Translations under genes and position numbers: made by a program
In this document: piece by piece, positions 50,409 through 64,000 of the stretch
Position numbering within the stretch: position 1 is the first letter of the stretch
Layout of the letters: each line of letters opens with the position of its first letter
Source: a virus
Lineage: Duplodnaviria; Caudoviricetes
Reading direction: 5' to 3' (one strand)
IMG/VR virus record: IMGVR_UViG_3300037113_000024
Span: 685-64,684 of that record
Length of the DNA: 64,000 nucleotides
Notes under the pieces: generated by a model
The model's input: only the letters and a program-made list of their open reading frames with translations
What the model was told of the DNA's origin: nothing
Databases searched by the model: none

Positions 50409-50554
50409 CCCTCGTATTTCCCCTCTTATTTCCCCTCTTATTTCCTATACGTGACCACCCTCTTATTTCCTATACGTGACCACCCTCTTATTTCCTATAC
50501 GTGACCACCCTCTTATTTCCTATACGTGACCACCCTCTTATTTCCTATACGTGA
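50409..50554. repeat. Tandem array: two 12-bp partial units plus ~5 x 25-bp CCCTCTTATTTCCTATACGTGACCA
   Basis: Units start at 50433, 50458, 50483, 50508, 50533; partial units at 50409 and 50421. Confidence 0.95.
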
Positions 50555-50733: not shown

Positions 50734-50750
50734 TGATACGCGCCGTATCA
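50734..50750. promoter_or_regulatory. Palindromic operator-like site 1 (TGATAC-N5-GTATCA)
   Basis: ttTGATACgcgccGTATCAaa. Confidence 0.85.
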
Positions 50751-50762
50751 AAAGACCATGGT

Positions 50763-50791
50763 TTGACAGTATGGGCGACTTATGCCATTAT
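50763..50791 (+). promoter_or_regulatory. Early sigma70-type promoter
   Basis: TTGACA-17-CATTAT with TG upstream of -10. Confidence 0.65.
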
Positions 50792-50835
50792 TGGGTGGTC
50801 GGAATGAGCCGACAGAGTGTGAAGGAATAGAGATC

Positions 50836-51438
50836 ATGGCCACGAAGCAGACTGATACCGCCACCTTGCTCGCCACGTTCATTGCTAACGTCGCGACGTT
50901 CGCTCTAAGCGTGAAGGCGCTTGGCGCTTCCCTCAAAGCTGTATGGGGCAAGATTGAAGAGGACGTGCTGAAGGAGCAATTCCACGTCACCTATATCGTT
51001 AACAAGTTCGGCGTCACGAAGGAAAAGGCCGTCGAGGCTTATGGCAAGGCTTGGCTCACAAAGGACAATGCCGGCGGGGCTAACGTCATGTCGAAGGCGC
51101 AATTCAATTGGATGCACGCGGCTAAGCAGCAATGGGGCCGGGCGAAGGATGAGGCCGGCGTGACTGTCAAAAACCCTAACAAGGTCGCCGCGAAAAAGAC
51201 GGCCGATGCGGCCGATGTTTCAAAGGTGGTCATGCCGAAAGGCGCGCCCAAAGTGGTAAGCTCCATTGATTTCGCCGCGCTTGCCCTCGCCTACGCTTCT
51301 GTACCTAAGGATGTTTATCTCAACAACAGGACGCATAAGGCTTTCGCCGACAAGCGCGCTGAAGAGGTTTACGCGGCGATTGCTGATCACGTCGATTGCC
51401 TGAAGGCAATCATTGCCAAGTATGAAGAGATGGCTTAA
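50836..51438 (+). CDS. First early protein, Ala/Lys-rich, unknown function
   Basis: AAGGA RBS, ATG 50836. Confidence 0.75.
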   Translation: MATKQTDTATLLATFIANVATFALSVKALGASLKAVWGKIEEDVLKEQFHVTYIVNKFGVTKEKAVEAYGKAWLTKDNAGGANVMSKAQFNWMHAAKQQWGRAKDEAGVTVKNPNKVAAKKTADAADVSKVVMPKGAPKVVSSIDFAALALAYASVPKDVYLNNRTHKAFADKRAEEVYAAIADHVDCLKAIIAKYEEMA

Positions 51439-51460
51439 CCATTGTTCTAGACCATGGGTT

Positions 51461-51477
51461 TGATACGCTTCGTATCA
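51461..51477. promoter_or_regulatory. Operator-like site 2
   Basis: gggttTGATACgcttcGTATCAaaccc (11-bp arms). Confidence 0.85.
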
Positions 51478-51503
51478 AACCCTACTTCAAAGGAGTATAG
51501 AGC

Positions 51504-51590
51504 ATGAATGTACCTCGCATGGCTCCCACGTTTCGCGCCAAGTCAAGGCTTATCTGGCCGATGTGGCTACTAAGGTTCCTGATCGCTTAA
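51504..51590 (+). CDS. 28-aa peptide
   Basis: AAAGGAG RBS; MNVPRMAPTFRAKSRLIWPMWLLRFLIA; followed by terminator. Confidence 0.55.
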   Translation: MNVPRMAPTFRAKSRLIWPMWLLRFLIA

Positions 51591-51609
51591 GCCTTCCCGC
51601 TTATTTCCC

Positions 51610-51641
51610 AGCCCGCCAGCGCAAGCTTGGCGGGCTTTTTC
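51610..51641 (+). terminator. Rho-independent terminator
   Basis: AGCCCGCCAGC-GCAA-GCTTGGCGGGC-TTTTT. Confidence 0.85.
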
Positions 51642-52224
51642 GTTTGTGCTTATTTCACTGACAAACTCTGTACTGCCTTACCTTTGTCCGAAATGTGGCG
51701 AAGCCTCATGGCGAAAATGTGGCAAAAAAAAGTCGTTGATTTAAGGGGTATTTTAATAACCTGCTAACAAAACAAGAACATTGACACATCAACTGTTAAC
51801 ATTACACGAAAGTGAGGATACTCCATAACTAAAAATCCTCAATGTTCTCGTCATGTCCCAGGGCGTGCCACTCTCTACACGCGCCTGGGACGAGCGAAAC
51901 AGTAGTCGTATCAACGTGTTAAAAACGACTTGGCTTACGCACCCACCCAGCTGGGACGAGCAATAACCCAACGATATCAATACCCCATATCATATACTTT
52001 ACTATACTTACCTAGAAAAAGAAAAGAGAGAGAATTTACGCGCGCGCGCGCCGCGTCGCGACACGTGCTCAAACACGCACAAATATTTATCTCTCTTTCC
52101 GGCGATCCAACCAAACAGGGCGAATAGGCACGCCTAACACTCTGACATATAAGAGAATTAACCAGTCCCATCGAACGTGCCAAACTGGCCTTGCCTTCCA
52201 AACCCGCCCACTATACCCTTGATT

Positions 52225-52241
52225 TGATACAGCGAGTATCA
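52225..52241. promoter_or_regulatory. Operator-like site 3
   Basis: tTGATACagcgaGTATCAa just upstream of an RBS. Confidence 0.85.
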
Positions 52242-52258
52242 ATCCCAGGAGACAGAGC

Positions 52259-52771
52259 ATGGCTAAGAGCTACACCCACGCACCCAAAGGCGCGATAATC
52301 TGGACACGCGAGGATCAGGGCTACTTAATGGCGCGCCTCAACATCGCCGTCGTCGTATCAATCATCTACGACCCAGAAAGGCTTCTCCACGGCGCACACA
52401 TCAAGAGCACCAACGTCTACACTCGCACCGATGACGAAGCCGCATCAGAGATCGCGCGCCGTGCGTTCGACACGTCATCCCAGTATCACGCCCTCTGCGC
52501 CAAAGCCCAGGCGTTCTACGAGCAACAAAACTTCTACGGCTACGTCGGCGCATGGGAGGACGGCTGCGGCCACCGCAAAAACAACTATTGGCTCAAGCGC
52601 GCCCTCATGCCCGGCCGCATGCGTGGCCTGACGCAGCCCCGCGACACCTTGGATGCTCTGAAGTCCAAGCCCAAAGCCCAACGCATCAACGCCCAAGTCT
52701 TCATGCGCACAGCTTCATGGGCGCACAAGTACCACGTGCAGCCCATAAAGCCCGTACGAACGAAACAGTAG
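52259..52771 (+). CDS. Hypothetical early protein
   Basis: AGGAG RBS. Confidence 0.75.
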   Translation: MAKSYTHAPKGAIIWTREDQGYLMARLNIAVVVSIIYDPERLLHGAHIKSTNVYTRTDDEAASEIARRAFDTSSQYHALCAKAQAFYEQQNFYGYVGAWEDGCGHRKNNYWLKRALMPGRMRGLTQPRDTLDALKSKPKAQRINAQVFMRTASWAHKYHVQPIKPVRTKQ

Positions 52772-52795
52772 TCACGGGACCACACACCACACAGC

Positions 52796-52824
52796 ATACG
52801 TCAATATACGTCAATATACGTCAA
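52796..52824. repeat. 3 x 10-bp tandem repeat ATACGTCAAT upstream of promoter
   Basis: catacgtcaatatacgtcaatatacgtcaaaa. Confidence 0.85.
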
Positions 52825-52830
52825 AACCAC

Positions 52831-52859
52831 TTGACACCAGTGGTAATACGTGCTATAAT
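52831..52859 (+). promoter_or_regulatory. Consensus sigma70 promoter
   Basis: TTGACA-17-TATAAT with extended TG. Confidence 0.9.
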
Positions 52860-52895
52860 GCACCCTCAATAAGAACAGTGTTTCCCGCAAGAGTT

Positions 52896-52912
52896 TGATA
52901 CGGAGTGTACCA
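52896..52912. promoter_or_regulatory. Operator-like site 4 (spacer contains the RBS)
   Basis: ttTGATACggagtGTACCAaa. Confidence 0.8.
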
Positions 52913-52916
52913 AATC

Positions 52917-53840
52917 ATGGCTATGGTGCTTCAGAACGTGAAAGTGCTTCGCTCGTTCGGCGACTGCGCCGCGTACTACGAGAAAGCCCACCAGTGGCGT
53001 ACCCTCGCGGGACGCGAGGAAGCGTATAGCGAGCGCTCGGGCATCCAGATTGAGCCGGGCTTCAACGCCCACCCGCAAGGCTCGCGGGCGCTCGACCCAC
53101 ACAACCACAAGCGCTACCTCAGCATCCGGCCCATCGAGAACGGTGAGGGCTACGCCTGTCGCTACCGCAACACCGACGTGGTGGTCTGGCGCTCGGGATC
53201 GAACCCGAACACCGAGGGACGAGGTGAGACGGTTACCGTGCGTGGCTACACGTCACGCTCGACCGCGCTCATGGCCGAAAACCTCACGCCTCTCGGGATC
53301 GACTTCAAGATGCACTACGACGACGCCTACTTCGCCTTCGTTAGGGGGCGCGTCTATGGCTTCGACAAAACCATCACGTTCGCGGCGCGCAACGAATGGT
53401 TGCCCGTGGATCACACCTACAAACTCACGTTTATTGACTACGCCTCGCCCTCGCTTCAGAACGCGCTCAACAAAACCCGCTACAAAGACTTCGTGGCTTG
53501 GTTGAACGCGGTCATGTCGTTCGATCAGTTGCCCGTGTCCTACAACAATGGTTCGCCACGCGACATAATCGAGCGCGCCGACGACGAGATCGCAACCCAT
53601 GGTGTGCTCGGTTTGCTACAGGACGTATCAAAGTGGGAGCACCTGAAGAGCTTCCACGGTTGGATAGACCACGAGAACCCAAGGAGCGTGCTGGCTCGCG
53701 CCGACAGGATCAAGCGCGAGATACGCGAGCACATCTACCGCGAGTTCAAGGCTGTTCCCGTGCGCGAGGTGGAGTGGTACGATGCAGACCAGTTCGACCG
53801 CCAGCGCCACCTCCACGAGAAGTATTCGTGGGCGCTTTAA
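52917..53840 (+). CDS. Hypothetical early protein (paralogue of 56031-56873)
   Basis: GGAG RBS; shared motifs with 56031-56873; contains site 5 at 53614-53630. Confidence 0.8.
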   Translation: MAMVLQNVKVLRSFGDCAAYYEKAHQWRTLAGREEAYSERSGIQIEPGFNAHPQGSRALDPHNHKRYLSIRPIENGEGYACRYRNTDVVVWRSGSNPNTEGRGETVTVRGYTSRSTALMAENLTPLGIDFKMHYDDAYFAFVRGRVYGFDKTITFAARNEWLPVDHTYKLTFIDYASPSLQNALNKTRYKDFVAWLNAVMSFDQLPVSYNNGSPRDIIERADDEIATHGVLGLLQDVSKWEHLKSFHGWIDHENPRSVLARADRIKREIREHIYREFKAVPVREVEWYDADQFDRQRHLHEKYSWAL

Positions 53841-53854
53841 CATAGGAGAGAACC

Positions 53855-54283
53855 ATGGCCTACTCGCTCCCTCTCAAACCGCCTGCCCAAAGCGCCGCCG
53901 CCAATCGCGTGCCTGACACCGAGCGTTGGTTGATCACGCCCGACATGTGGAGCGTGGCCGACCACAGGCAAGCCTCGCGCGAGGGCTGGTATATCAACTG
54001 TAGCCCTGACGCCGGGATGACCCGCATCTGCGCATGCGATGCGCCTGTCGGCACGGGCGAAGAGTGGGCGCAAGGCAACGGTTGGTCCCTGCCTACCGCC
54101 CAACCCGTGCTCATGGTTGGCGTATCAGTCAGGTACGACCCACGCGACCCCGAGTGGTCCGCGTTCGTCAGCGACACCCAGGCCGCGGAATGGGTGGTAG
54201 AGCAGATGCACCGAGGTTCTGCGTTTCATGAGCGCGCGTGGCGCGCCGTCGTCAAAGCCCAGATGCAAGGAGCACTCGAATGA
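53855..54283 (+). CDS. Early protein, W-x3-D-x3-A-GW family
   Basis: AGGAG RBS; WSVADHRQASREGWYI...GSAFHERAW. Confidence 0.8.
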   Translation: MAYSLPLKPPAQSAAANRVPDTERWLITPDMWSVADHRQASREGWYINCSPDAGMTRICACDAPVGTGEEWAQGNGWSLPTAQPVLMVGVSVRYDPRDPEWSAFVSDTQAAEWVVEQMHRGSAFHERAWRAVVKAQMQGALE

Positions 54284-54351
54284 GCCACAACCCCCACATA
54301 CTCCAAATAAGTAGTGCACGCACCTTAAACATAAACAGGAGAACCCCCATC

Positions 54352-54708
54352 ATGGGTGAGAGCAAGCTGCCGTGGGTGATCCCGCCCAAACTATGGTCCA
54401 ACTGGGATCAGACATGCGCGAAGGAGGCGGGCTGGCATATCTACTTCGACGCCAACCGTTGGATCATCGCGCAATGCCGGACAGCCAAGGGCATCGTGCG
54501 CTTCGATTCAAACGAGCACGCACGCGATTGGGTGTCGAAGCAGGCCGACAACGGATCGAAACGCCACATCCGCGCCATCCGCGCGCTGATCGCGGCGAAC
54601 ATCTCGGGCCACAGGCCCATGCACATGCCGCGCTTCGGCGTGTCGGAAAGCGATCAGTATGACGCTGTCGCCTACGAACAGTTCATCAACAGGACGCAAC
54701 GGCCATGA
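54352..54708 (+). CDS. Early protein, W-x3-D-x3-A-GW family
   Basis: AGGAG RBS; WSNWDQTCAKEAGWHI...GSKRHIRAI. Confidence 0.8.
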   Translation: MGESKLPWVIPPKLWSNWDQTCAKEAGWHIYFDANRWIIAQCRTAKGIVRFDSNEHARDWVSKQADNGSKRHIRAIRALIAANISGHRPMHMPRFGVSESDQYDAVAYEQFINRTQRP

Positions 54709-54845
54709 TCAAGTCTCTCATAATCGGGTTCCTCATATCCCTGTTCTTCGTCGGCGGCACGACCGGCGGCAACCTGCTCGCTTGGGTGGTGGTCTGGCTC
54801 GTGATCTCGGGCGTCACCTACATCATCTTGGAGGACAAGCCATGA
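54705..54845 (+). CDS. 46-aa two-TM membrane protein
   Basis: ATGA coupled at both ends; MIKSLIIGFLISLFFVGG... Confidence 0.65.
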   Translation: MIKSLIIGFLISLFFVGGTTGGNLLAWVVVWLVISGVTYIILEDKP

Positions 54846-55093
54846 GCAGGGGCATCGTTGACAGCCACGGCCGACCGCTGCCGCGCTTCTACGAACTCGA
54901 TATCCCAACGCGGGGGTTCGTCATCCAGCACGAGCGCGCCCACGCTTACGTGCGCCGCTCGTACCTCAGCCCCGTCGAGCGCTTCAAGGACGTGGCCCGC
55001 ACGCTCAGTGCGGGCGACAGCATGCACGCGCTCGACCTCTACGACGGGCGCGAGCAGAAGGAACTCTACCAGCGTATCCTGATGGGAGTTTGA
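54842..55093 (+). CDS. Hypothetical early protein
   Basis: GGAGG RBS, ATG 54842. Confidence 0.7.
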   Translation: MSRGIVDSHGRPLPRFYELDIPTRGFVIQHERAHAYVRRSYLSPVERFKDVARTLSAGDSMHALDLYDGREQKELYQRILMGV

Positions 55094-55107
55094 TACCATG
55101 CGTACCA
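55091..55107. promoter_or_regulatory. Operator-like site 6 (contains upstream stop and downstream start)
   Basis: ttTGATACcatgcGTACCAaa. Confidence 0.8.
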
Positions 55108-55547
55108 AAGACAACTTCGACCCGTCCAAGCTCACGCCTGCCTTCCTGGCCCAGGTGTTCAAAGCGCAGCAGGACTTGATCGCCAAGCACGAACAGATAC
55201 GCCTCACGCTCTACGAGATGATGGCGAGCATGGGCTACCACGCGCCTGTGGTGCGCCCGTGCAAGCTGCGCTTCTTCGCTCTGCGGGGCGTCGTGATCGA
55301 GCAGCCAAGCCATTGGTTGGTGTTCGGCAACGAGGACAAGCATCGCGTGCGCGCCTACGCCGAAGACACGCTGACCGAGCCGAGCGTGCCGCCGCGTCCT
55401 CTCGGCTTCATGATCCCCACCGGCAAGTTTCACGCGAGCCGCGACGGCTCGCTCGATGCTTACTACCACTGCCTCAGGGGCAAGGAGTATCTGGGCGTGG
55501 ACCGCACAGCGCGGGGCGTCTATGCGATCACCTCCTATGAGCGATGA
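55098..55547 (+). CDS. Hypothetical early protein
   Basis: GGGAG RBS. Confidence 0.75.
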   Translation: MRTKDNFDPSKLTPAFLAQVFKAQQDLIAKHEQIRLTLYEMMASMGYHAPVVRPCKLRFFALRGVVIEQPSHWLVFGNEDKHRVRAYAEDTLTEPSVPPRPLGFMIPTGKFHASRDGSLDAYYHCLRGKEYLGVDRTARGVYAITSYER

Positions 55548-55959
55548 TCGAGACAACCAACGCGCGCTGCGCAAGATCATCGACCATGGCCGCAACTATG
55601 GCATGGGGCCTACCTCCATGCTCAAGGCCATCAAGGCCATCAAGGGCATGGAGGCTACGCTTGTCTCCATGGACGAGTACAGCACCATCGGCAAGGAAGT
55701 ATGGGAAAGGTTGGTGGACGCCATGAAACAACAATGGATCATTGAGGGCGAGTGGTCGCAGTACCATTCGATGGTGGCCCAAGGCCAGGGGTGGGGCCTG
55801 TCGCATGTCAAGGGCATGTGGCAGGTGGTCACGCTGGACCCCGCCAGGTTCGCAGACAACGAAGCCGCGCGGCTCTACGTGCTCGAACACGAGAAGGATC
55901 AAAACAGTAGTTTGTACGCGATTGCCGTGCAGGCTGTGATCGTGGGCAACATGCGATGA
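55537..55959 (+). CDS. Early protein with C-terminal W-x3-D-x3-A-GW family domain
   Basis: WSQYHSMVAQGQGWGL...FADNEAARLYV. Confidence 0.7.
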   Translation: MSDDRDNQRALRKIIDHGRNYGMGPTSMLKAIKAIKGMEATLVSMDEYSTIGKEVWERLVDAMKQQWIIEGEWSQYHSMVAQGQGWGLSHVKGMWQVVTLDPARFADNEAARLYVLEHEKDQNSSLYAIAVQAVIVGNMR

Positions 55960-55973
55960 AGACGGAAGCGGCG

Positions 55974-55990
55974 TGATACATTGGGTATCA
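55974..55990. promoter_or_regulatory. Operator-like site 7
   Basis: TGATACattggGTATCA, intergenic. Confidence 0.85.
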
Positions 55991-56030
55991 AAATCCCCCG
56001 TACTGAAGACCAAGTGTAAGGAGTAGTGTC

Positions 56031-56873
56031 ATGGGTTGGAGAGCAGGTATCAGCACTTACGGACTACCCTCTGTGGGTTCGTACGACGACGCCAAGAGGG
56101 CGTGGGAGAGGGCGCGCGTGGCGCGGGGCAATCTGACCCGGCGCTACCTGAAGCTGAAGGACACCACCAAGTTCATCGACTATTACACCGACAACGGCGG
56201 CCCGCCGACCTACTTCATGGGCTTCGGGCGCGAGCTTGTCCGCTACTACGCCACGGGCCGCATCTGCGTCAGCGAGGGCTACACCGTGGGCGACGCCGAC
56301 TTCGCGAACCACACGTTGCCGGGCGGCGTTTACGCTAACTACAAAAGTTGCCTGGGCAAGACGCTCAGGGTCTACTCCCGGCTCTACCGGCTCGACGGGC
56401 TTCTGGCCCTGGAACTGGACGGAAACGGGGGCTACGCCGTGACCGAGCCCTCCCGGCCATGGAAGTGGCCCCGGCTGGACGCCGCCCACGGGCGGGCTGC
56501 GCTGAAGGAATGGGAGTTTCAGAACTTTTGTCACTGGACGCGAGCAACAGTTCACATGGACTGTCTGCAAGCGCCGCGGTCCCTGGCCGACATAACCACG
56601 CCCATGGCCATGATGCGCGACCGCAGTTCGACCGGCCTCACGCATGTCGCGTCGGCGCTCAAGAACCCCGACCGTTGGCACGAGGTGGTGCGCACGCTCA
56701 TGGCGGACGGCAAGCGTGGGGACAACCTGATCAAGGCCGCGTGCGACATGGCCAGGACTGCGATACACTTCGCCAGTGGAGCGCTGGCCGTGCACGAGTT
56801 CGATCACATCCACGAGAACGATGCGGCGCGATACTATCGCGCCGTAAGTAAGTACCATGGTCTTGCGGGGTGA
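56031..56873 (+). CDS. Hypothetical early protein (paralogue of 52917-53840)
   Basis: AAGGAG RBS. Confidence 0.8.
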   Translation: MGWRAGISTYGLPSVGSYDDAKRAWERARVARGNLTRRYLKLKDTTKFIDYYTDNGGPPTYFMGFGRELVRYYATGRICVSEGYTVGDADFANHTLPGGVYANYKSCLGKTLRVYSRLYRLDGLLALELDGNGGYAVTEPSRPWKWPRLDAAHGRAALKEWEFQNFCHWTRATVHMDCLQAPRSLADITTPMAMMRDRSSTGLTHVASALKNPDRWHEVVRTLMADGKRGDNLIKAACDMARTAIHFASGALAVHEFDHIHENDAARYYRAVSKYHGLAG

Positions 56874-57226
56874 ACATCATGACCGAAGCCGTACCCAACT
56901 ACCTATGGGACAATAGGGACCAAGAGAGAGCCAAAGCGCATGGGTGGGTTGTCGAGACGGTGGGCTTCGTCGGCCATGGCGAGGCACGCAACTTCGGCGG
57001 CATCGCCATTGACGACAGCCTCAGCTTCGGCAGCTATTCGTTCTACTGGATTGACCCCATGGTCATGGGCAAGACTTGGACCGATAGCCTCGTGGACTTC
57101 ATCGCTGAAGAAGCAGCCAAGGGCGTGCCTCTCTATGAGAAGGCTTGGTTGCTGTACTGCTACATAGACCTGCGCGGCAAGCTGCGCAGGGCTACCCAGA
57201 TCACAGCATGGGGTGACCCCTGCTGA
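56870..57226 (+). CDS. Early protein, W-x3-D-x3-A-GW family
   Basis: LWDNRDQERAKAHGWVV...GVPLYEKAW. Confidence 0.75.
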   Translation: MNIMTEAVPNYLWDNRDQERAKAHGWVVETVGFVGHGEARNFGGIAIDDSLSFGSYSFYWIDPMVMGKTWTDSLVDFIAEEAAKGVPLYEKAWLLYCYIDLRGKLRRATQITAWGDPC

Positions 57227-57240
57227 TACGAAGCGTATCA
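57224..57240. promoter_or_regulatory. Operator-like site 8
   Basis: TGATACgaagcGTATCA; TGA is the upstream stop codon. Confidence 0.85.
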
Positions 57241-57264
57241 AACAAGAGAGCGAGTACCCGACCA

Positions 57265-57807
57265 ATGAGTAATGTCTATCAGACAGAGCAGCGTGTCGTC
57301 TGCGGGCGTCATGTCAAAATCGAGTGGGCGTACGACCAGCACTTGGGCAAGCCATGGAAAGAGTGCGACGGGAACGGCCCCGTGAGCGAGTGGCGACCCA
57401 AGGACAGCAAGAAGCCCGGCGAGCGTGAGCTATCGAGAGACGGCGCGTCCCGTCGCTTCTACGATTGGGAGGCCGCGATCAAGCAGGCGCGCAAGGAGAG
57501 TTGGGGCCTGGGCATCAACGGATACACCGCCCTCATGTGCGAACTGCGCCGCGTGCCGACCGCCAAGCAGGTGCGCGAGCGCGCCGTCAAGAACAACTAC
57601 GAATGGCTATGGGACTGGTGCCACGACAACTGGCACTGGTGCGGTATCGTCGTCACCGATATCCAGAGCGGCGTGGAGCGTTCGCTGTGGAGTATCGAGA
57701 GCACCAACGAGCACGGATACCACGAAGAGATAATCACCGATCTCGTTGAGGACATGTACGTTGACGTGGTGCGCGTCCTCATGGGCGGCGAAGACGAGGC
57801 AGCATGA
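57265..57807 (+). CDS. Conserved phage hypothetical protein
   Basis: PWKECDGNGPVS...WCHDNWHWCGIVV...SLWSIES pattern. Confidence 0.8.
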   Translation: MSNVYQTEQRVVCGRHVKIEWAYDQHLGKPWKECDGNGPVSEWRPKDSKKPGERELSRDGASRRFYDWEAAIKQARKESWGLGINGYTALMCELRRVPTAKQVRERAVKNNYEWLWDWCHDNWHWCGIVVTDIQSGVERSLWSIESTNEHGYHEEIITDLVEDMYVDVVRVLMGGEDEAA

Positions 57808-58154
57808 GTACGCCGTTTCTGTTCAAGGACGAAGAAGGCGAGCCTCTCGGATCGTTCGCCTTCTTCGAGACAGCCGAGGACAAGGCGCTGTGGCCCCTGA
57901 AGCTGCGGCGTCGCGCCCATGTAATGGGGTTCGAGATCACGCCATGGCGCGCCTTCACGGCCACGGGCATGAACTACGCCATGGGTTGGACTAACTTCAA
58001 CGCACCCGGCGAAACAGTAGTCGAGTGGTTGCAGTCCCACCTAGAGGTGGTTGAACGCGAAGGCGTGGGCGACCTTGAACTATGGGAGAGCGCATGGAGG
58101 TTCTACATCGTACTGAGCATGGGGCACAGGCTACGCTTCAAGGTAGGCAGATGA
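57804..58154 (+). CDS. Hypothetical early protein (possible divergent family member)
   Basis: ATGA coupling; RRRAHVMGFEI...LWESAWRFY. Confidence 0.7.
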   Translation: MSTPFLFKDEEGEPLGSFAFFETAEDKALWPLKLRRRAHVMGFEITPWRAFTATGMNYAMGWTNFNAPGETVVEWLQSHLEVVEREGVGDLELWESAWRFYIVLSMGHRLRFKVGR

Positions 58155-58420
58155 TAGGAGGCACATGGGGACCACTGTGGAGCGCACACGACAACAAGCA
58201 CGCCATACGACGACATGGTTGGTCGCTCGCGTGGCAATGGAACCCGGAACAGCGTTGCTGGCACGCGGTCATCTCAACAAGGCACCCACCGTTCAGCGCG
58301 CTCGAACGGCGGGTGCTCAAGCGCTTTGACCTGTTCTACCGTGAGGGTCATGACCTTCACGTCCGAGCCTGGGCAACCATTGTTGCGTCCCGAATGGACC
58401 CCAACATGGTGTCGCCTTAG
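58151..58420 (+). CDS. Early protein, W-x3-D-x3-A-GW family
   Basis: LWSAHDNKHAIRRHGWSL...GHDLHVRAW. Confidence 0.75.
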   Translation: MIGGTWGPLWSAHDNKHAIRRHGWSLAWQWNPEQRCWHAVISTRHPPFSALERRVLKRFDLFYREGHDLHVRAWATIVASRMDPNMVSP

Positions 58421-58440
58421 GGAAACTATGACCATTGGTG

Positions 58441-58469
58441 TTGACACACCATGGTTTATGTGCTATTGT
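58441..58469 (+). promoter_or_regulatory. Sigma70-type promoter
   Basis: TTGACA-17-TATTGT with extended TG. Confidence 0.75.
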
Positions 58470-58497
58470 ATATGGGTACTGACCAAGGATAGGAACT

Positions 58498-59622
58498 ATG
58501 CAAACTCTCGATAGCGTCGGCGTAGCCGAGTTCATTAAGCATGTCGCGATTAAGCTCGATCAGCCTGTCATGGTTGTCGGCACGTTCGGTTCGGCCAAGA
58601 GCGCCGTAACCAACCAAGTCGCGAGCGACCTTGACAGCCCCGAAGCGCTCGACGCGCTCCTGGGCGACCGCAACCAGTCTTTGATACCGACCGTATCAGA
58701 CGACGGCGACACGCTCTACACCAAGTTCACCGGGACGATACTCTGCGACGTTCGCCTCGCTCAATACGAGAGCGTCGATCTCCGCGGCTTCCCCGGCGTC
58801 AACAAGGCGACGGGCATGACGGTGTGGCATGCGCCGAGCACGCTTCCCTTCGTCGGCAACGACGACTTCCCCGACGACAAGATCATCATCCTGTTCCTCG
58901 ATGAGATCACGTCGGCGACGCCGCCTGTCTTCAGCGTGGCCTACCAGTTGGTCAACGAGCGCCGCGTCGGCGAGCATGTGCTGAAGCCCAACGTTCGCGT
59001 GGTCTGCGCGGGCAACCTCGAAAGCGACAAGGGCGTCGTCAACCGCATGCCCATGCCGTTGTGCAATCGCCTGACCTGGGTGCAGCAGGTCGTCAACCAC
59101 AAGTCGTGGGCCGACTGGGCGCAGAGCGTCGGCATCACGCCGGTGGTCATCGCGTTCATCCACTTCAAGCCCAACCTACTCATGACCTACGACCCGGCCA
59201 AGGCCGAGAAGGTGGTCGCGACGCTGCGCACTTGGGAGAAGGCGGCTGCGTACTTGGTTGACGACATGCCCGAAGAGATCAAGTGGGCGGCGTGCGCCGG
59301 CTCGATTGGTCAGGGACCGGCGACCGAGTTGCGCGCCTTCATTGATATCTGGCAGAAGGTGATCCCGCCCAAGCAGATCGCTGCCGACCCCGAGGGCACG
59401 CCGGTGCCGACCGAGGCGAGCATGCGATATGCGACTGCTGTATCTATCTCGGGAGCAATGTCGGGCAAGCTGCTCGCGCCGCTCTATCAGTACCTCAAGC
59501 GTCTGCCGCCTGAGTTCATCGTGCTGGCGTGGCAGTTGGCGCAGAAGCGCGACCAGCGGCTCTACAACACGCCCGAGTTTATGGATTTCACGAAAAGATA
59601 TAGAAGCATATTCAATATGTAA
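58498..59622 (+). CDS. MoxR-like AAA+ ATPase
   Basis: Walker A GTFGSAKS, DLRGFP, Walker B LFLDE, CAGN, PLCNRL, TLRTWE; contains site 9 at 58682-58698. Confidence 0.88.
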   Translation: MQTLDSVGVAEFIKHVAIKLDQPVMVVGTFGSAKSAVTNQVASDLDSPEALDALLGDRNQSLIPTVSDDGDTLYTKFTGTILCDVRLAQYESVDLRGFPGVNKATGMTVWHAPSTLPFVGNDDFPDDKIIILFLDEITSATPPVFSVAYQLVNERRVGEHVLKPNVRVVCAGNLESDKGVVNRMPMPLCNRLTWVQQVVNHKSWADWAQSVGITPVVIAFIHFKPNLLMTYDPAKAEKVVATLRTWEKAAAYLVDDMPEEIKWAACAGSIGQGPATELRAFIDIWQKVIPPKQIAADPEGTPVPTEASMRYATAVSISGAMSGKLLAPLYQYLKRLPPEFIVLAWQLAQKRDQRLYNTPEFMDFTKRYRSIFNM

Positions 59623-59647
59623 GTATAGAGTTTCGGAGTAACCGAAA

Positions 59648-60049
59648 ATGCGTAATGATCCGATACGTAGAACGTATCTAGTCTGGTTCGCAATGGTGGG
59701 ACGTTGCACTAAGCGTCACCACAAAAGCTATCCAGACTACGGCGGGCGAGGCATCCGCGTGTGCAAGAGGTGGCTAATATTTAGCAACTTCCTTGAGGAC
59801 ATGGGGCCATGCCCGTTGGGGTTGACACTCGAACGTCGCTGCAACGGCCGAGGGTACTGGCCGTCGAACTGTCGGTGGGCGACGCGCGCTGAGCAGGCGC
59901 GCAACTATCGCCGCAACGTGTGGATCACATGGCGCGGCGAAACCAAATGCGTGAAGGACTGGAACACGCACTTCGGCCTCAAGCCGAACGTGCTCGCGTC
60001 ACGTCTCAAGCGACGAACTGTGCGTCAAGTCTTTTGTGAGCTTGACTAA
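59648..60049 (+). CDS. Free-standing HNH-type homing endonuclease
   Basis: RC...SYPDYGGRGIRVCKRW..F.NFLEDMG...TLERR.N..GY.PSNCRWATRAEQARN. Confidence 0.88.
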   Translation: MRNDPIRRTYLVWFAMVGRCTKRHHKSYPDYGGRGIRVCKRWLIFSNFLEDMGPCPLGLTLERRCNGRGYWPSNCRWATRAEQARNYRRNVWITWRGETKCVKDWNTHFGLKPNVLASRLKRRTVRQVFCELD

Positions 60050-60060
60050 CAAAACCATGG

Positions 60061-60077
60061 TGATACGCGCCGTATCA
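60061..60077. promoter_or_regulatory. Operator-like site 10
   Basis: TGATACgcgccGTATCA, same spacer as site 1. Confidence 0.85.
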
Positions 60078-60098
60078 ACCGAAGGAAAGGAATATGTT

Positions 60099-60602
60099 GT
60101 GGCACCCAGGACACGAGAGCAGCAGGACGCTTACAACGAGAAGCGTCGGCGTGAGAGTGCAGCGAAGCGTGGTGCGCCCCCGCCCGCACCGAAAGGGAAA
60201 GCGCCAGCAAAGAAGGCGAAGGCCCAAGCCAAAGTGAACGGCCACGCGCCGCCCAAGGTGAAGGCTAAGCCTCTACACGCCAAGGAGGGCCGAGCCAAGC
60301 CTGTCAAGTCGATCCCCGAGCATAAGATCGAGGACGCCCGCACCAACATGATCCAGCCAAAGCTGGCGACGATCCAGCAAACGAAACTGCCCGGCTTCAC
60401 CATGGCCGGCTCGTACGTCCGCAAGACGGGAGCGGGCAAGGGCAAGTTGCGCAACGGCACGCACCAATGCACTGTGGCTTTCACCACCGAGCAAATGAAC
60501 TGGCTCGTGGCGAAGGCCGGCTTCAAGCTGGTGTCGCTTGCGGAGATGATCCGCATATGCGTGGTCGAGAGGATGGCGCGCCCCGATGGGAGTTCGACTT
60601 AG
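60099..60602 (+). CDS. Basic protein with C-terminal ribbon-helix-helix domain
   Basis: AAGGA + GTG 60099; Lys/Ala/Pro tract; CTVAFTTEQMNWLVAKAGFKLVSLAEMIRICV. Confidence 0.65.
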   Translation: MAPRTREQQDAYNEKRRRESAAKRGAPPPAPKGKAPAKKAKAQAKVNGHAPPKVKAKPLHAKEGRAKPVKSIPEHKIEDARTNMIQPKLATIQQTKLPGFTMAGSYVRKTGAGKGKLRNGTHQCTVAFTTEQMNWLVAKAGFKLVSLAEMIRICVVERMARPDGSST

Positions 60603-60828
60603 CGACTACGACTGGACGGTGCTCGCTGCCTGCCAACTAGGCGGCGTGCGTCGCCGGTATAAGGACACGCCGTCCGGCATCTTGGTTGAATACTTCACCA
60701 TGGGTGACACGGACGTGACGCAAAGCATCACCCGCCTAGAGCGGGCGGGCAGGATCGAACCACATCATATCACGTTGGGTGTGGACAAAGAGGGTCTGAA
60801 GGCCGCCATGAGAAGGGTAGTGAAATGA
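60586..60828 (+). CDS. Small hypothetical protein (winged-helix-like)
   Basis: LSDYDWTVLA...VTQSITRLERAGRI. Confidence 0.6.
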   Translation: MGVRLSDYDWTVLAACQLGGVRRRYKDTPSGILVEYFTMGDTDVTQSITRLERAGRIEPHHITLGVDKEGLKAAMRRVVK

Positions 60829-62039
60829 GCACCGCAGCAATCAAGCTAGACACCTACGACAAGGCGCGCTCGCAACTGCTGATCCGTCAGCCGTTCTTCG
60901 CGAGCGTCGTCCTGTCCACTGAGTGGATACCGGACGAGAAGATACCCACGGCCTGCACCGACATGGTGAAGGTGTGGTACAATCCCAAGTTCATTGACGA
61001 CTTGGGCGTGGACCACGCGATGTTCGTGCTGGTGCATGAGATCATGCACATCATCCTGAAGCACGGGCTGCGCCGCGGCTCACGCAAGCCGATCCGTTGG
61101 AACAAAGCGTGCGACTACGCGATCAACCAAGAGTTGGTGGACAGCGGGCTGTCCATGCCGGACAGCGGGCTGATCGACAAGGCGAAGTACGGCGGCATGA
61201 CGGCCGAGCAGATATACGATATCCTTACGCAGGAGAAGGAGAAGGGCGGCGGCAAGGGCAAGGGCAAGCCCCCGCCGGGCACGAAGGTTCAGCCGGGTCA
61301 GCCGGGCGACCGCCCCGATGACGACGACGACGTTACCGACCTGGGCGAGATGGGCGCGGACGTGATGACGCCCGGCGAGCGGGACGGCAACGAGCCGACC
61401 GAGGCTGAGGCGCGTCAGATCAGCGCGAGCATCGACGGCAAGGTGGCGCAGGCTGCGACCATGGCGCGCGCCGCGGGCAAGCTGCCGGCGAACATCGCGC
61501 TCTTGGTTGACGGCGTGCTCAATCCTCCGCAGCCCTGGGAGATTGTGCTGCGCGAGTTCATGACGCGCATGGTGCAGCAGAATGAAACGTGGTCGCGCCG
61601 CAACCGGCGCTTCACTCCTATCCTACCCACGTCGTTCGATGTGGGCATGGGAGAGTTGGTCATCATCGGCGACACATCGGGCTCGATGATGGTGGACAAA
61701 ATCTTTGCGCAGATCGCGGTGGAGATCAATCACTGCCGCGAGTACGTGAAGCCCGAGCGGACGCGCGTGGTCTGGGCCGACTACGCCGAGTGCTCGCATG
61801 AGCAGGTGTTCGAGCCGGACGAACAGGTGGTGCTCGAACCCAAGGGCGGCGGGGGCACAGACATGCGCCTGCCTCTCAGGTATGTGGAGAAGTTCCACCC
61901 CGACGTTGTGATCCTGATCACGGACTGCGAGACGCCGTGGCCTTCACAGGAGACACCCTACCCGCTGATCGTGGCGAGCACGACCAATCAGAAGTGTCCC
62001 GACTGGGCGCTTCGCCTGCAACTGAGGACGCATGCCTGA
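60825..62039 (+). CDS. DUF2201-like metallopeptidase + vWA domain protein
   Basis: PTACTD, HEIMH, WNKACDYAIN, DTSGS MIDAS, GGGGTD, ITD. Confidence 0.9.
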   Translation: MSTAAIKLDTYDKARSQLLIRQPFFASVVLSTEWIPDEKIPTACTDMVKVWYNPKFIDDLGVDHAMFVLVHEIMHIILKHGLRRGSRKPIRWNKACDYAINQELVDSGLSMPDSGLIDKAKYGGMTAEQIYDILTQEKEKGGGKGKGKPPPGTKVQPGQPGDRPDDDDDVTDLGEMGADVMTPGERDGNEPTEAEARQISASIDGKVAQAATMARAAGKLPANIALLVDGVLNPPQPWEIVLREFMTRMVQQNETWSRRNRRFTPILPTSFDVGMGELVIIGDTSGSMMVDKIFAQIAVEINHCREYVKPERTRVVWADYAECSHEQVFEPDEQVVLEPKGGGGTDMRLPLRYVEKFHPDVVILITDCETPWPSQETPYPLIVASTTNQKCPDWALRLQLRTHA

Positions 62040-62322
62040 AACGATGAAAGCGTACGACGTGCTTGCCAACATCGACCCGGACGGGAAAGCGGTGGCGACC
62101 AACGTCATCGTCCACCGCACGTTCAAAACCATCAACGACTACTTCGATCATGAGTACGTGCGTTGGTTGGTGGTGCGCGAGCATGGTGATCCGGTTGTTC
62201 GGGTCATTGACTTATGGGCCACGGAGATGACAGAAAGGTTTCCGTATGTTACGCCGTGGTTCATCCAAGAAACATTCGCGACGGCCGACCAAGCCGTTGC
62301 GTTCATAGCCCTCACTATCTGA
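62032..62322 (+). CDS. Hypothetical protein
   Basis: GAGG RBS; overlap-coupled. Confidence 0.65.
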   Translation: MPETMKAYDVLANIDPDGKAVATNVIVHRTFKTINDYFDHEYVRWLVVREHGDPVVRVIDLWATEMTERFPYVTPWFIQETFATADQAVAFIALTI

Positions 62323-62336
62323 TACGTGTTGTATCA
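62320..62336. promoter_or_regulatory. Operator-like site 11
   Basis: TGATACgtgttGTATCA; TGA is the upstream stop codon. Confidence 0.85.
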
Positions 62337-62356
62337 ACCGACCAAGGAGTAGAGTT

Positions 62357-63223
62357 ATGCAGATTGATCTCGCCTCGCGCATGATGCTCGTCAACGTCTC
62401 GATCTCTGTGTGGGAGGGGCGCAAGCTGGACAAGCGCATCACCCGCAAGACCATCGCTGACAACCACGTCAACGACGAGAAGGGGCTGCGCGTCAACAAG
62501 CTGCTCATCGACAGCGACGCCTTCAAGGAGGTGCAGGCCACGTCGTCCGAGGTGCGTGACTTCGTGAAGACGAACACGCTGCCGTGGTACGACAAGGGCT
62601 ACCGCGCTCTGCTGCGCCAGCGCTATCAGGCGTTCGTGGAAAAGTTCCACATCAAGGAGCAGAACTGGTGGGCCGCTGTCGATCACTTCGTCCGCGTCAA
62701 GTATCCGGCTGAGGTGGCGAAGGCCAGCTTCCGACTAGTCGATGCGTTCGTGGAGAGCGACTACCCCGGCGTCAACGAACTGCGGGACCGCTTCAAGCTG
62801 ACGCTGGACATTGCGCCCATCGCCGGCGCGGATGACTTCCGCGTCAAGCTGGACGAGGCCACCGTCACAGACATACAGGACAAGATCAGGGCGGCGACCG
62901 AGCAGCGCGTGCACGACGCCATGGTGGATGTGTGGGAGCGCGTCGAGAAAGCGGTGCAGCACTTCGCCGCCCGCACCGGCCCCGACATTGAGCGCTTCCA
63001 TGCCACCACCGTGACGAACATGGTGGAGTTGGTTGACCTGCTGCCGGCGCTCAACCTGACCAACGATCCCAAGCTGAAGGAGATGGCGACCAAGCTGCGC
63101 AGCACGCTGTGCACCTACGACCCGAAGGACCTGAAGAAGGACCTGTCCGTCCGCAAGGCGGCCAACCAAGACGCGGCCAAGATCATGGAAGACATGGAAT
63201 CCTTTATGCAGGCGTTCCGCTGA
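62357..63223 (+). CDS. DUF3150-like protein
   Basis: LVNVSISVWEGRKLD...NKLL...TLPW...DYP...LNLTNDP; usual partner of AAA/vWA genes. Confidence 0.75.
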   Translation: MQIDLASRMMLVNVSISVWEGRKLDKRITRKTIADNHVNDEKGLRVNKLLIDSDAFKEVQATSSEVRDFVKTNTLPWYDKGYRALLRQRYQAFVEKFHIKEQNWWAAVDHFVRVKYPAEVAKASFRLVDAFVESDYPGVNELRDRFKLTLDIAPIAGADDFRVKLDEATVTDIQDKIRAATEQRVHDAMVDVWERVEKAVQHFAARTGPDIERFHATTVTNMVELVDLLPALNLTNDPKLKEMATKLRSTLCTYDPKDLKKDLSVRKAANQDAAKIMEDMESFMQAFR

Positions 63224-63286
63224 CCCGACTTGACGTAACCTTGGGTGCGGGGCTACCCCGTACCCTCCACAACAAAACAGTAGTTT

Positions 63287-63303
63287 TGATACACGGAGTA
63301 CCA
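63287..63303. promoter_or_regulatory. Operator-like site 12 (overlaps the RBS)
   Basis: ttTGATACacggaGTACCAa. Confidence 0.8.
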
Positions 63304-63306
63304 AGT

Positions 63307-64000
63307 ATGCAACTTAGCGACGATAGCATCTGGCACTTATGTCACCCAGGCGTAGCGGACGGGCTCAAGGATCGTGACCGGCTGCGCGATCCGAGGACGG
63401 GCTACCCGCTGCCGATGATCACGCCGTTCCTTGAGAGCAAGTACATCGTCAACGGCAAGTCCGCCGGCCTCAGCGTGGCGTCCTACGACCTCAGGATCGC
63501 CCACGACCTGACCCTGGGACCGCACCCCGGCTATCGCCTACAGGCGGGCATCCGGCGCGCCCTGTTCGCGGTCAAGGCGGTGCGTGAGCGGCGCGCCGAG
63601 CGCTCGCGCAACGGCGAGACGGCCATGACCATCATCATGGAGGAACCGGACGACCTCGACATGATGCTGCCGGGGCTGTCGATGGCCATGGAGGACAGCC
63701 CGCCTCCGTTCGCCCTGGCGCACACCATTGAGAACTTCGCCATGCCCTTGGATGTGTCAGGGCAGATTTGTGATAAGAGCACCTATGCACGCATGGGGCT
63801 TTCGTGCTTCAACACCTTCTTCGATCCGGGGTTTATAGGGAACGGCACCCTCGAACTCGTGAACCTTTCGTCGGAAACGATAGTTATTAGGGCAGGCGAC
63901 CCGATCTGCCAAATAGTATTCAACAGGTTGGATAAGCCTGTAGCCCAGGGCTACACAGGGAAGTACCAGTATCAACCACAGCAGCCTGTGCCGGCGATTA
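63307..64000 (+). CDS. dcd: dCTP deaminase (runs off window end; absent from ORF track)
   Basis: Manual translation: MQLSD...GLSVASYDLR...FALAHTIE...DKSTYARMGL...DPGFIGNGTLELVN...GDPICQIVF...YTGKYQYQ. Confidence 0.88.
   Translation, partial: MQLSDDSIWHLCHPGVADGLKDRDRLRDPRTGYPLPMITPFLESKYIVNGKSAGLSVASYDLRIAHDLTLGPHPGYRLQAGIRRALFAVKAVRERRAERSRNGETAMTIIMEEPDDLDMMLPGLSMAMEDSPPPFALAHTIENFAMPLDVSGQICDKSTYARMGLSCFNTFFDPGFIGNGTLELVNLSSETIVIRAGDPICQIVFNRLDKPVAQGYTGKYQYQPQQPVPAI

Follow-up and report, generated by a model that had tools for sequence, protein, structure and literature searches.

Twelve palindromes in the early arm of an uncultured phage: a possible stoperator-like network of symmetric DNA sites

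Results

An early arm punctuated by palindromes

The sequence analysed here, referred to as the window, is a stretch of 64,000 nucleotides (bases 685-64684) of the IMG/VR record IMGVR_UViG_3300037113_000024, which is 64,684 bp long in total and is rated 100% complete. It derives from an uncultured peat/pond phage, labelled G000 in our comparisons, and the element in question is a short palindrome, TGATAC-N5-GTATCA, that recurs twelve times in one part of this genome. A composition-based gene call, combined with PHROG and Pfam scans, yields a map with two arms. The plus strand, from 50.8 kb via the end of the record to 15.1 kb, begins with approximately 25 early genes, mostly unknown; these are followed by genes for a MoxR-like ATPase, a free-standing HNH protein, a DUF2201/VWA protein and a dCTP-deaminase-like protein, and finally by those for DNA polymerase, exonucleases, a helicase and a primase. 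The minus strand, from 50.35 to 15.2 kb, carries the structural genes, namely terminase, portal, capsid, a protein of 2271 residues and tail genes. Since the ends of the record overlap by approximately 31 bases with one mismatch (window 63970-64000 versus the first bases of the record), the assembly is closed on itself or terminally redundant. The dCTP-deaminase-like gene spans the join.

A pattern scan of the window finds eight exact matches to TGATAC-N5-GTATCA and, if at most one mismatch is allowed, 12 matches, consisting of the eight exact and four one-mismatch copies. The expectation from 100 dinucleotide-preserving shuffles is 0.01 matches, and none of the shuffles attains 12. All 12 sites are confined to 12.6 kb of the 64.7 kb (window 50734-63303), the first stretch of the plus arm. 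Moreover, the whole 64,684-bp genome holds no further site, even if two mismatches are tolerated. A preliminary description of this DNA had given the same twelve coordinates, from 50734 to 63287, and had reported the word to be absent from the first 50.7 kb; both statements are borne out.

The arms and the spacer behave differently. Twenty of the 24 half-sites are exact. The four deviations, a GTACCA right arm at 52896, 55091 and 63287 and a TGCTAC left arm at 53614, had already been recognized; every one of them affects position 3 of the half-site, and none of the four is compensated on the opposite arm. The spacer is always 5 nt long and variable in sequence, as had been stated, with ten different 5-mers in the 12 sites. 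GCGCC is common to sites 1 and 10, and the spacer of site 2 (GCTTC) is the reverse complement of that of site 8 (GAAGC). The TT and AA flanks that had been noticed are found on the left in eight and on the right in seven of the 12 copies. The maintenance of the arms together with ten different spacers points to selection on two 6-bp words 11 bp apart, not to a copied unit. In contigs of four DNA sequencing runs that cover the arm, none of the 40 listed variant places (of 69) falls within a site, where approximately one is expected. On inspection, the word itself was rejected as a sigma70 promoter, as its -35-like and -10-like parts are only 7 nt apart.

Concerning placement, ten of the 12 sites lie at gene junctions and two within genes (53614 and 58682). 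Three sites supply the TGA stop of the upstream gene (55091, 57224 and 62320), and three overlap a ribosome-binding site (RBS) or an ATG (52896, 55091 and 63287). All of this agrees with what had been claimed. The distance between site and start codon is variable, ranging from a start inside the spacer to 40 nt, and at most copies the RBS lies outside the site. A T run follows none of the 12. The positions are compiled in Table 1, in which the GTG start next to site 10 was assigned from the N-terminus of the homologue in the related genome G003.

Table 1. Palindromic sites, the first early gene, and transcription signals of the early arm (window coordinates; ORF, open reading frame)
Feature	Position	Strand	Type	Context
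Site 1	50734..50750		exact	centre approximately -56 from P1, the first early sigma70-like promoter; 85 nt before start codon
Site 2	51461..51477		exact	23 nt after E1 stop; 26 nt before a tiny ORF that ends at the intrinsic terminator
Site 3	52225..52241		exact	17 nt before ATG at 52259
Site 4	52896..52912		GTACCA variant	GGAG in spacer; ATG 4 nt downstream; centre approximately +38 from P2
Site 5	53614..53630		TGCTAC variant	within ORF 52917-53840; variant base gives a Leu codon
Site 6	55091..55107		GTACCA variant	TGA is the upstream ORF stop; ATG of next gene inside spacer
Site 7	55974..55990		exact	40 nt before ATG at 56031
Site 8	57224..57240		exact	TGA is the stop of ORF 56870-57226; 24 nt before ATG at 57265
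Site 9	58682..58698		exact	within MoxR-like ATPase gene, in a 16-residue insert; approximately +214 from P3
Site 10	60061..60077		exact	upstream of the likely GTG start of a basic RHH-like protein gene
Site 11	62320..62336		exact	TGA is the stop of ORF 62032-62322; 20 nt before ATG at 62357
Site 12	63287..63303		GTACCA variant	GGAG within site; ATG of dCTP-deaminase-like gene 3 nt after
E1	50836..51438	+		200 aa; first early gene, flanked by sites 1 and 2
P1	50763..50791	+	sigma70-like, TTGACA-17-CATTAT	heads the early arm
P2	52831..52859	+	perfect sigma70 consensus, 12/12	
P3	58441..58469	+	sigma70-like	ahead of ATPase gene
Terminator	51610..51646 (hairpin 51610-51636)	+	intrinsic-terminator-like hairpin and T run	end of P1 transcript

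P1, P2 and P3 are the only sigma70-like promoters found on the plus strand of the early arm. Together with the terminator of the P1 unit they indicate that the arm is very probably transcribed by the host polymerase and that it is several transcription units, not one operon. They also substantiate the claim that many sites are away from promoters: two of the 12 stand beside one, site 1 upstream of P1 and site 4 downstream of P2, and a single one, site 1, is near a promoter core, where it lies upstream of the -35 of P1 and not over it. A comparable arrangement is found in relatives, where the first site precedes the -35 of the first early promoter by 8-12 bp. It is centred at -50 and -53 in G002 and G004, respectively, and, as judged by eye, lies 8-9 bp ahead of a -35-like hexamer in G003 and G005. 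At internal promoters of five genomes the site is found at +38 to +79 downstream.

Relatives carry words of their own at equivalent positions

A related capsid protein is encoded on 229 IMG/VR contigs, the best 80 of which have capsids 77-100% identical to that of G000. The closest cultured phage is Pseudomonas phage Rollin, with a terminase identity of 42%. A cluster of the TGATAC word is absent from 14 large relatives and from Rollin. An exact-word scan of IMG/VR gave, among the matches listed, only single chance copies per contig, and megablast of the early arm against cultured phages gave no match. A near-identical variant found in one sample, G015, has the same 12 sites; the 144 arm bases are free of substitutions between it and G000, with approximately three expected at 2% divergence, which are too few to count.

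A de novo scan for repeated palindromes detects an own, clustered palindrome in 13 of 14 related IMG/VR genomes or stretches, and these fall into seven word types. They are AGTAAC-N5-GTTACT in G002, TCTGGGTAGCTACCCAGA in G003, TGTTAC-N5-GTAACA in G004, G008, G009 and G010, TGTTA-N7-TAACA in G001, AGTCAA-N5-TTGACT in G005, TTTGT-N11-ACAAA in G006 and G007, and TGTTAA-N4-TTAACA in G014. The stretch without a word, G012, may not cover the early arm. Partial loci yield additional words. On the transcribed strand, the sites of the relatives lie directly after stop codons and 5-40 nt ahead of an RBS-ATG, and in G007 and G006 the Shine-Dalgarno sequence is enclosed by the word, with the ATG directly adjoining it. 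In several relatives the sites extend into the replication genes, so that the restriction to the early arm is peculiar to G000.

TGTTAC-N5-GTAACA is retained in all four genomes that have it, although only 4-7 kb of their approximately 20-kb arms align, at 70-76% identity. Within G003, G004 and G005 the whole unit, including the spacer and the near flanks, is identical between copies. The spacer is found in either orientation in G005 and G004, although that of the flanks is constant, and the spacer of site 1 is inverted between G000 and G015. Spacer flips with fixed flanks indicate that the orientation of the spacer is immaterial, as is expected of a symmetric binder.

A comparable element is found in a cultured, more distant relative, Stenotrophomonas phage StenR_269 (OR838459), whose capsid is 34% identical. 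It has ten exact and four one-mismatch copies of a spacerless 12-bp palindrome, TTTAACGTTAAA, all of them in the plus-strand early/replication arm and mostly between a stop codon and the next RBS-ATG. Since this word has no spacer, it would form only a very weak hairpin, and a stable one is unlikely. We regard the StenR_269 palindrome as comparable to the G000 word, and the two may represent one phenomenon. By term counts, promoters, palindromes and hairpins are not mentioned in the StenR_269 paper, and the one "repeat" refers to technical repeats (PMC10747016). Rollin (OR577172), for its part, has 4-5 copies of AAAAGGTAG-N7-CTACCTTTT. These are packed into approximately 500 bp around the start of the record, which includes 100 N, and are not dispersed.

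A DNA word is favoured over an mRNA hairpin

The sites were folded as RNA 21-mers, with random 21-mers of the arm as the baseline (-2.7 +/- 2.4 kcal/mol). The sense-RNA hairpins of the eight exact sites range from -5.1 to -7.5 kcal/mol, those of the four variants from -1.2 to -1.6 kcal/mol. The variants keep 11 of the 12 specified bases despite the collapse of the hairpin. Moreover, the three GTACCA variants are precisely the three sites that overlap an RBS or a start codon, a coincidence with a chance of 1 in 220, and the T-to-C exchange in the right arm is the sole transition at that pair that breaks the hairpin of the sense strand. From this coincidence, the loss of the hairpin and the retention of the bases, we take it that selection acts against the mRNA hairpin at starts, as a harmful by-product that would bury them, and that the DNA word is retained there.

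Two further sites bear on the same question. Site 9 is found downstream of P3, 184 nt into the ATPase gene, in a lineage-specific insert of 16 residues that is absent from G004, a place where an element for translation start or processing makes no sense. Site 1 lies upstream of P1 and is, consequently, not transcribed from it. Overall, the evidence that can be drawn from the sequence favours a DNA word over an mRNA hairpin, and the suggestion of the preliminary description that RNA hairpins control translation is disfavoured as the primary role.

E1, a candidate for the binding protein

The best candidate for a protein that reads the word is E1, the product of the first early gene, a choice that draws on gene position and structure models. 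An E1 homologue is the first early gene in G000, G002, G003, G005 and G007, and the second in G004. The family evolves fast: its alignment of 12 proteins from ten loci shows 14-22% identity. A profile search recovers 486 representatives at E<=1e-3 in a library clustered at 50% identity, a word-indexed protein search with E1 only eight relatives. Based on a 143-row alignment, E1 is modelled with a pLDDT of 88.9 as a five-helix N-domain, a basic linker and a C-terminal helical hairpin; an earlier model from 12 rows (pLDDT 48.8) was unusable.

E1 is predicted to form a symmetric homodimer. The two-copy model scores 0.76, compared to 0.00 for the best of three controls, and this mark is attained by 20 of 30 proteins solved as one-chain pairs and by one of 23 solved as single chains. 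Three dimer runs agree in at least 96% of the contacts, with a partner pLDDT of at least 78. VIA-align matches only the generic C-terminal helical hairpin of the E1 model, with Z up to 8.4. The E1 profile finds nothing better than E>=0.079 in the PDB. The look-alikes named in an atlas (DUF3102, a cluster similar to T4 RegA and a Streptomyces phage repressor cluster) were rejected, since they score at most 0.82, which is the chance level.

Other proteins were considered as well. A gene at 60036-60602 encodes a basic 188-aa protein whose C-terminus looks RHH-like by eye (Pfam finds none). It is a poor candidate for the binder, as it has homologues in G001, G002 and G003 only and its presumed DNA-reading strand is near-constant (Q-T-T/A) though the words of these phages differ. 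The gene at 60586-60828 encodes an 80-aa protein with a winged-helix look by eye, for which there is no Pfam match and a homologue only in G003. A partition or silencing system of the ParA/ParB or KorB type was rejected too: the ATPase is MoxR-like, and its neighbour is a DUF2201/VWA protein, not ParB. PHROG scans detect no DNA-binding family in the proteins covered either. Finally, among approximately 50 proteins scanned, many of them ORFans, no integrase or partition gene turned up, and the genome looks lytic.

Neighbouring features

Several features of the region stand apart from the palindromes. In the divergent interval between the structural and early arms, approximately 180 bp upstream of site 1, lies a perfect tandem array of a 25-bp unit (4.9 copies, 100% matches) with a 12-bp sub-repeat (window 50409-50554); possible identities are an iteron array, an origin or another array for protein binding. 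Immediately upstream of P2, window 52796-52824 holds 2.9 copies of the 10-bp unit ATACGTCAAT. Between the P1 terminator and site 3, at window 51650-52225, there are approximately 580 bp of A+T-rich DNA (GC 0.525 versus approximately 0.62 elsewhere) that have no convincing ORF and no Rfam match; part of this interval, 51723-51844, is replaced in G015. Rfam and tRNA scans of the entire window gave no match.

Two adjacent, paralogous small early genes occupy window 53855-54708 and belong to a family with four copies in G003. A contig of sequencing run X6 joins 54302 to 54590, as from recombination between the two paralogues. The free-standing HNH endonuclease gene (window 59648-60049) lies between the ATPase gene and site 10, and G015 has a 166-bp non-aligning stretch in its place. 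Finally, the gene set at window 58498-63223 encodes the MoxR-like AAA ATPase, the DUF2201 metallopeptidase/VWA protein and a 288-aa protein with a weak DUF3150 match. The complete set is conserved in G003, G004 and G005, and its first two members also in G007.

Discussion

Alternative explanations

An element that acts in RNA would be a leader hairpin read by a phage-specific RNA-binding protein or nuclease, with processing, stabilisation or translational repression of the early mRNAs as the outcome. It would account for the ten sites in leaders or junctions, which lie 3 to 40 nt before a start (apart from site 1, at 85 nt, and site 6, whose spacer contains the start), and for the sites shortly downstream of internal promoters in five genomes. 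Spacers of 3-5 nt suit hairpin loops, the eight exact sites fold well below the random baseline, and the word around the Shine-Dalgarno sequence in G007 and G006 recalls the start-associated sequences of Cluster K phages (PMC3203893). However, the sense-strand hairpin is lost at four of the 12 sites without compensation, and it is the loops, the usual target of RNA-binding proteins, that are free and the stems that are fixed. The first site lies upstream of its promoter in several genomes, two sites are within ORFs, one of them deep in the ATPase gene and in an insert, the spacer flips its orientation, and the StenR_269 word has no spacer at all. Taken together, we consider an RNA-level element unlikely, if far from negligible. 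Still lower we rate a role of the junction word as a recombination linker, by which co-infecting relatives would swap early genes via short homology and which would be homogenised thereby; as the primary explanation this seems distinctly improbable to us. The preliminary description had offered cassette boundaries as an alternative, with breakpoints between relatives as the check, and the outcome is mixed. G000 and G015 differ internally at 51723-51844, at 53914-54663 (a 749-bp block with the two paralogous genes, absent from G015), at 55581-55632 and at 59622-60033 (the HNH gene), and none of the four junctions is at a site, the nearest being 28 bp off. Among the four genomes that share TGTTAC-N5-GTAACA, in contrast, there is enrichment: 17 of 180 BLAST block ends are at most 30 bp away from a site, compared to 4.2 +/- 2.0 for random positions (13 at the most in 1000 trials), and a block end lies within 60 bp at nine of 16 site junctions and at 30 of 117 others (Fisher p 0.018), a small test in which 16 of 32 sites are on a called junction. 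Further points for linkers are the identical whole units in G003, G004 and G005, as copying predicts, an early arm made up mainly of ORFans that differ between relatives, and the precedent of the PeSLs of T4-like phages (PMC4122927). Yet the spacers of G000 differ at nearly every site, which argues that the arms are held by selection on the word and not by copying, and recombination leaves the palindrome, the fixed 5-nt spacing and the site in the ATPase gene unexplained. We judge exchange at the word to be real but secondary.

The palindromes might also extrude as DNA hairpins and, as in N4, act as promoters of an RNA polymerase that is injected or encoded by the phage. The layout is indeed N4-like: one strand carries the early and replication genes, and the opposite strand encodes TerL, portal, capsid and a giant virion protein of 2271 aa. 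The capsid protein has weak tblastn matches in vibrio, roseobacter and acinetobacter phages, some of which we take to be N4-like. In addition, the sites precede early genes, the hairpin of the template (bottom) strand is maintained at 11 of the 12 sites, and the word is specific to the phage, like polymerase-promoter pairs. N4 promoters, however, need conserved loop bases and a GC-rich centre (PMC4496689), whereas the loop in G000 is free, with ten spacers in 12 sites. A polymerase was not found: the 2271-aa protein matches no Pfam family and no PDB sequence and lacks the motif-B-like pattern R-x3-K-x6-8-YG, and a PF00940 search of the genome gave no match, as was equally the case for its controls. 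In StenR_269 the giant protein is labelled a putative virion-associated RNA polymerase, on the basis of size, lack of cysteine and helical content only (PMC10747016). Moreover, the arm is headed by consensus sigma70 promoters in G000 as well as in relatives, a start codon falls within the spacer at one site and 3-4 nt beyond the site at two others, and two sites are intragenic. Given the free loop and the consensus host promoters, we rate hairpin promoters as very unlikely. As for the 2271-residue protein itself (window 32694-39509, minus strand), tblastn relates its residues 1041-1214 to T7-gp16-like internal virion transglycosylases and residues 1638-2214 to DarB-like antirestriction proteins. 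Relatives with capsid identities of 78-83% share only 26-33% identity in this protein.

Comparison with known systems

Each system that we compared shares traits with the G000 sites and differs from them in at least one defining feature. The stoperators of Cluster A phages (L5, Bxb1) likewise consist of many copies of a short word in transcribed genes, mostly at junctions (12 copies in 12.6 kb in G000), and from one related phage to another the word is exchanged as a complete set, as it is here with seven word types in 13 of 14 relatives; in Cluster A the word changes together with its binder (PMC6550527; PMC9283540). Stoperators are, however, asymmetric words of 13-14 bp, oriented with transcription and bound by the monomeric immunity repressor of a temperate phage (PMC6550527), whereas the word of G000 is a palindrome of two 6-bp arms in a genome in which neither a repressor nor an integrase was found. 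Thus, the stoperator analogy of the preliminary description fails on symmetry and orientation, and stands for the dispersed copies and for the word that changes between relatives. The start-associated sequences (SAS) of Cluster K are asymmetric 13-bp words that contain the ribosome-binding site at the starts of some non-structural genes, and their ESAS are inverted repeats with imperfect 17-bp arms, 4-13 bp apart, whose consensus varies by subcluster and whose role is unknown (PMC3203893). They have in common with our sites that the repeats are tied to translation starts; the sites differ by their arms of 6-8 bp, the fixed 5-bp spacer, the variable distance to the start and the two intragenic copies, G007 and G006 being closer.

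The PeSLs of T4-like phages are motifs at the boundaries of variable early genes, and exchange points between relatives are found at the motif (PMC4122927; PMC2839356). PeSLs are composites of a terminator and an early promoter, whereas in G000 11 of 12 sites are without an adjacent promoter and none has a T run, and the close pair G000/G015 has no breakpoint at a site. T1 and the Citrobacter phage Stevie, both lytic, carry 16-20 copies of a 22-bp intergenic repeat of unknown role (PMC4319613), which, unlike the palindrome of G000, is asymmetric and oriented with transcription. N4, a podophage, has inverted repeats with conserved loop bases before its early genes, the promoters of the virion RNA polymerase (PMC4496689). 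It shares the strand layout and the giant virion protein, but has three promoters and an identified polymerase, in contrast to twelve free-loop sites, no polymerase found and consensus host promoters in G000. As the sites lack a defining feature of each known system, they are a member of none. In their mode of action they most probably resemble stoperators, in a symmetric version.

A tentative model

Our preferred reading is that the twelve palindromes are double-stranded DNA sites for one phage-specific symmetric dimer and form a stoperator-like shut-off network; we advance it tentatively, as quite possible but short of probable. The operator-like part of the preliminary description is favoured by the conserved arms, the free spacers, the uncompensated deviations at position 3 and the word that is kept where the hairpin is lost, and moreover by the one site upstream of a promoter, the two intragenic sites and the difference of the word between relatives. 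Its proposal that a single regulator silences the whole early arm fares less well, as no such regulator was found and only one of 12 sites is near a promoter core, and there it is upstream of the -35. The sites with their statistics, the pattern of conservation, the promoters and the change of the word across the family are established by the sequence data; binding by a protein, its origin in the phage, its repressive action and its identity with E1 are steps that we infer.

A number of observations weigh against this reading. None of the 12 sites overlaps a promoter core. On the side of the binder, Foldseek searches with the whole-chain E1 model against pdb and viral structures return nothing at E<=0.001, and Pfam detects no DNA-binding family in 12 E1 homologues, nor in the 20 early-arm and ten middle proteins scanned. 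An E1 homologue was not found in StenR_269 or Rollin, nor in the examined stretches of G009 and G014, where the G009 contig breaks at the place expected for the gene, and E1 of G000 itself has Met at the position of the most conserved Arg of the family (Arg in at least 90%). On the side of the DNA, the bottom strand of the three GTACCA variants retains a G-T/G-U pair (-5.7 to -6.6 kcal/mol), so that a hairpin may form on the template strand. The spacers of the relatives, 0-5 nt in most words and 8 or 11 in two, are of sizes typical of hairpin loops, and the TGTTA half-site occurs with N5, N6, N7 or N8 in different phages, which a hairpin tolerates more easily than a dimer. The flip-flop of the spacer suggests that the palindromes extrude as hairpins or cruciforms at some stage. 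To these must be added the block ends at the site junctions of the TGTTAC group.

In such a shut-off network, host RNA polymerase would start early transcription at P1, P2 and P3. A phage-encoded, two-fold symmetric protein with a specificity private to the phage would accumulate and then occupy the sites, one just upstream of P1 and the rest downstream of promoters at nearly every gene junction. Its binding would shut the early arm down by a roadblock, by bridging between sites, or both. The placement of the sites at gene boundaries would result mainly from the poor fit of a 12-base word into coding sequence. As a by-product, related phages would find in the common word a short patch of homology for exchanging early genes.

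Implications

To our knowledge, dispersed regulatory words in phage genomes have been described for a few clusters of actinobacteriophages and for T1-like and T4-like phages, and a mechanism is known for stoperators only. Here the same kind of punctuation is found in a large, uncultured and apparently lytic lineage (229 capsid relatives in IMG/VR). It is palindromic, its word switches from phage to phage at constant positions, and in G000 arms and spacers are cleanly separated, which permits the argument from sequence that it is the DNA word, and not the mRNA hairpin, that is kept. If the cognate binder were found, the lineage would offer many natural pairs of protein and word in which to study how specificity and a whole set of sites change jointly, as well as orthogonal repressor-operator parts. 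The comparable word of the cultured phage StenR_269 makes the question testable at the bench.

More speculatively, and with little confidence, we can picture a widespread lineage of uncultured soil and freshwater podophages with a private operator code, in which a fast-evolving symmetric regulator, maybe E1 as the first gene to be expressed, is paired with a word of its own that marks nearly all junctions of early genes and, in relatives, those of replication genes as well. Such a pair would time the early shut-off and silence a sibling, but not a cousin, in a manner resembling homoimmunity, and the word would double as a joint for early-gene exchange. If this were true, the private word would let a resident lytic phage silence a superinfecting sibling while sparing its cousins.

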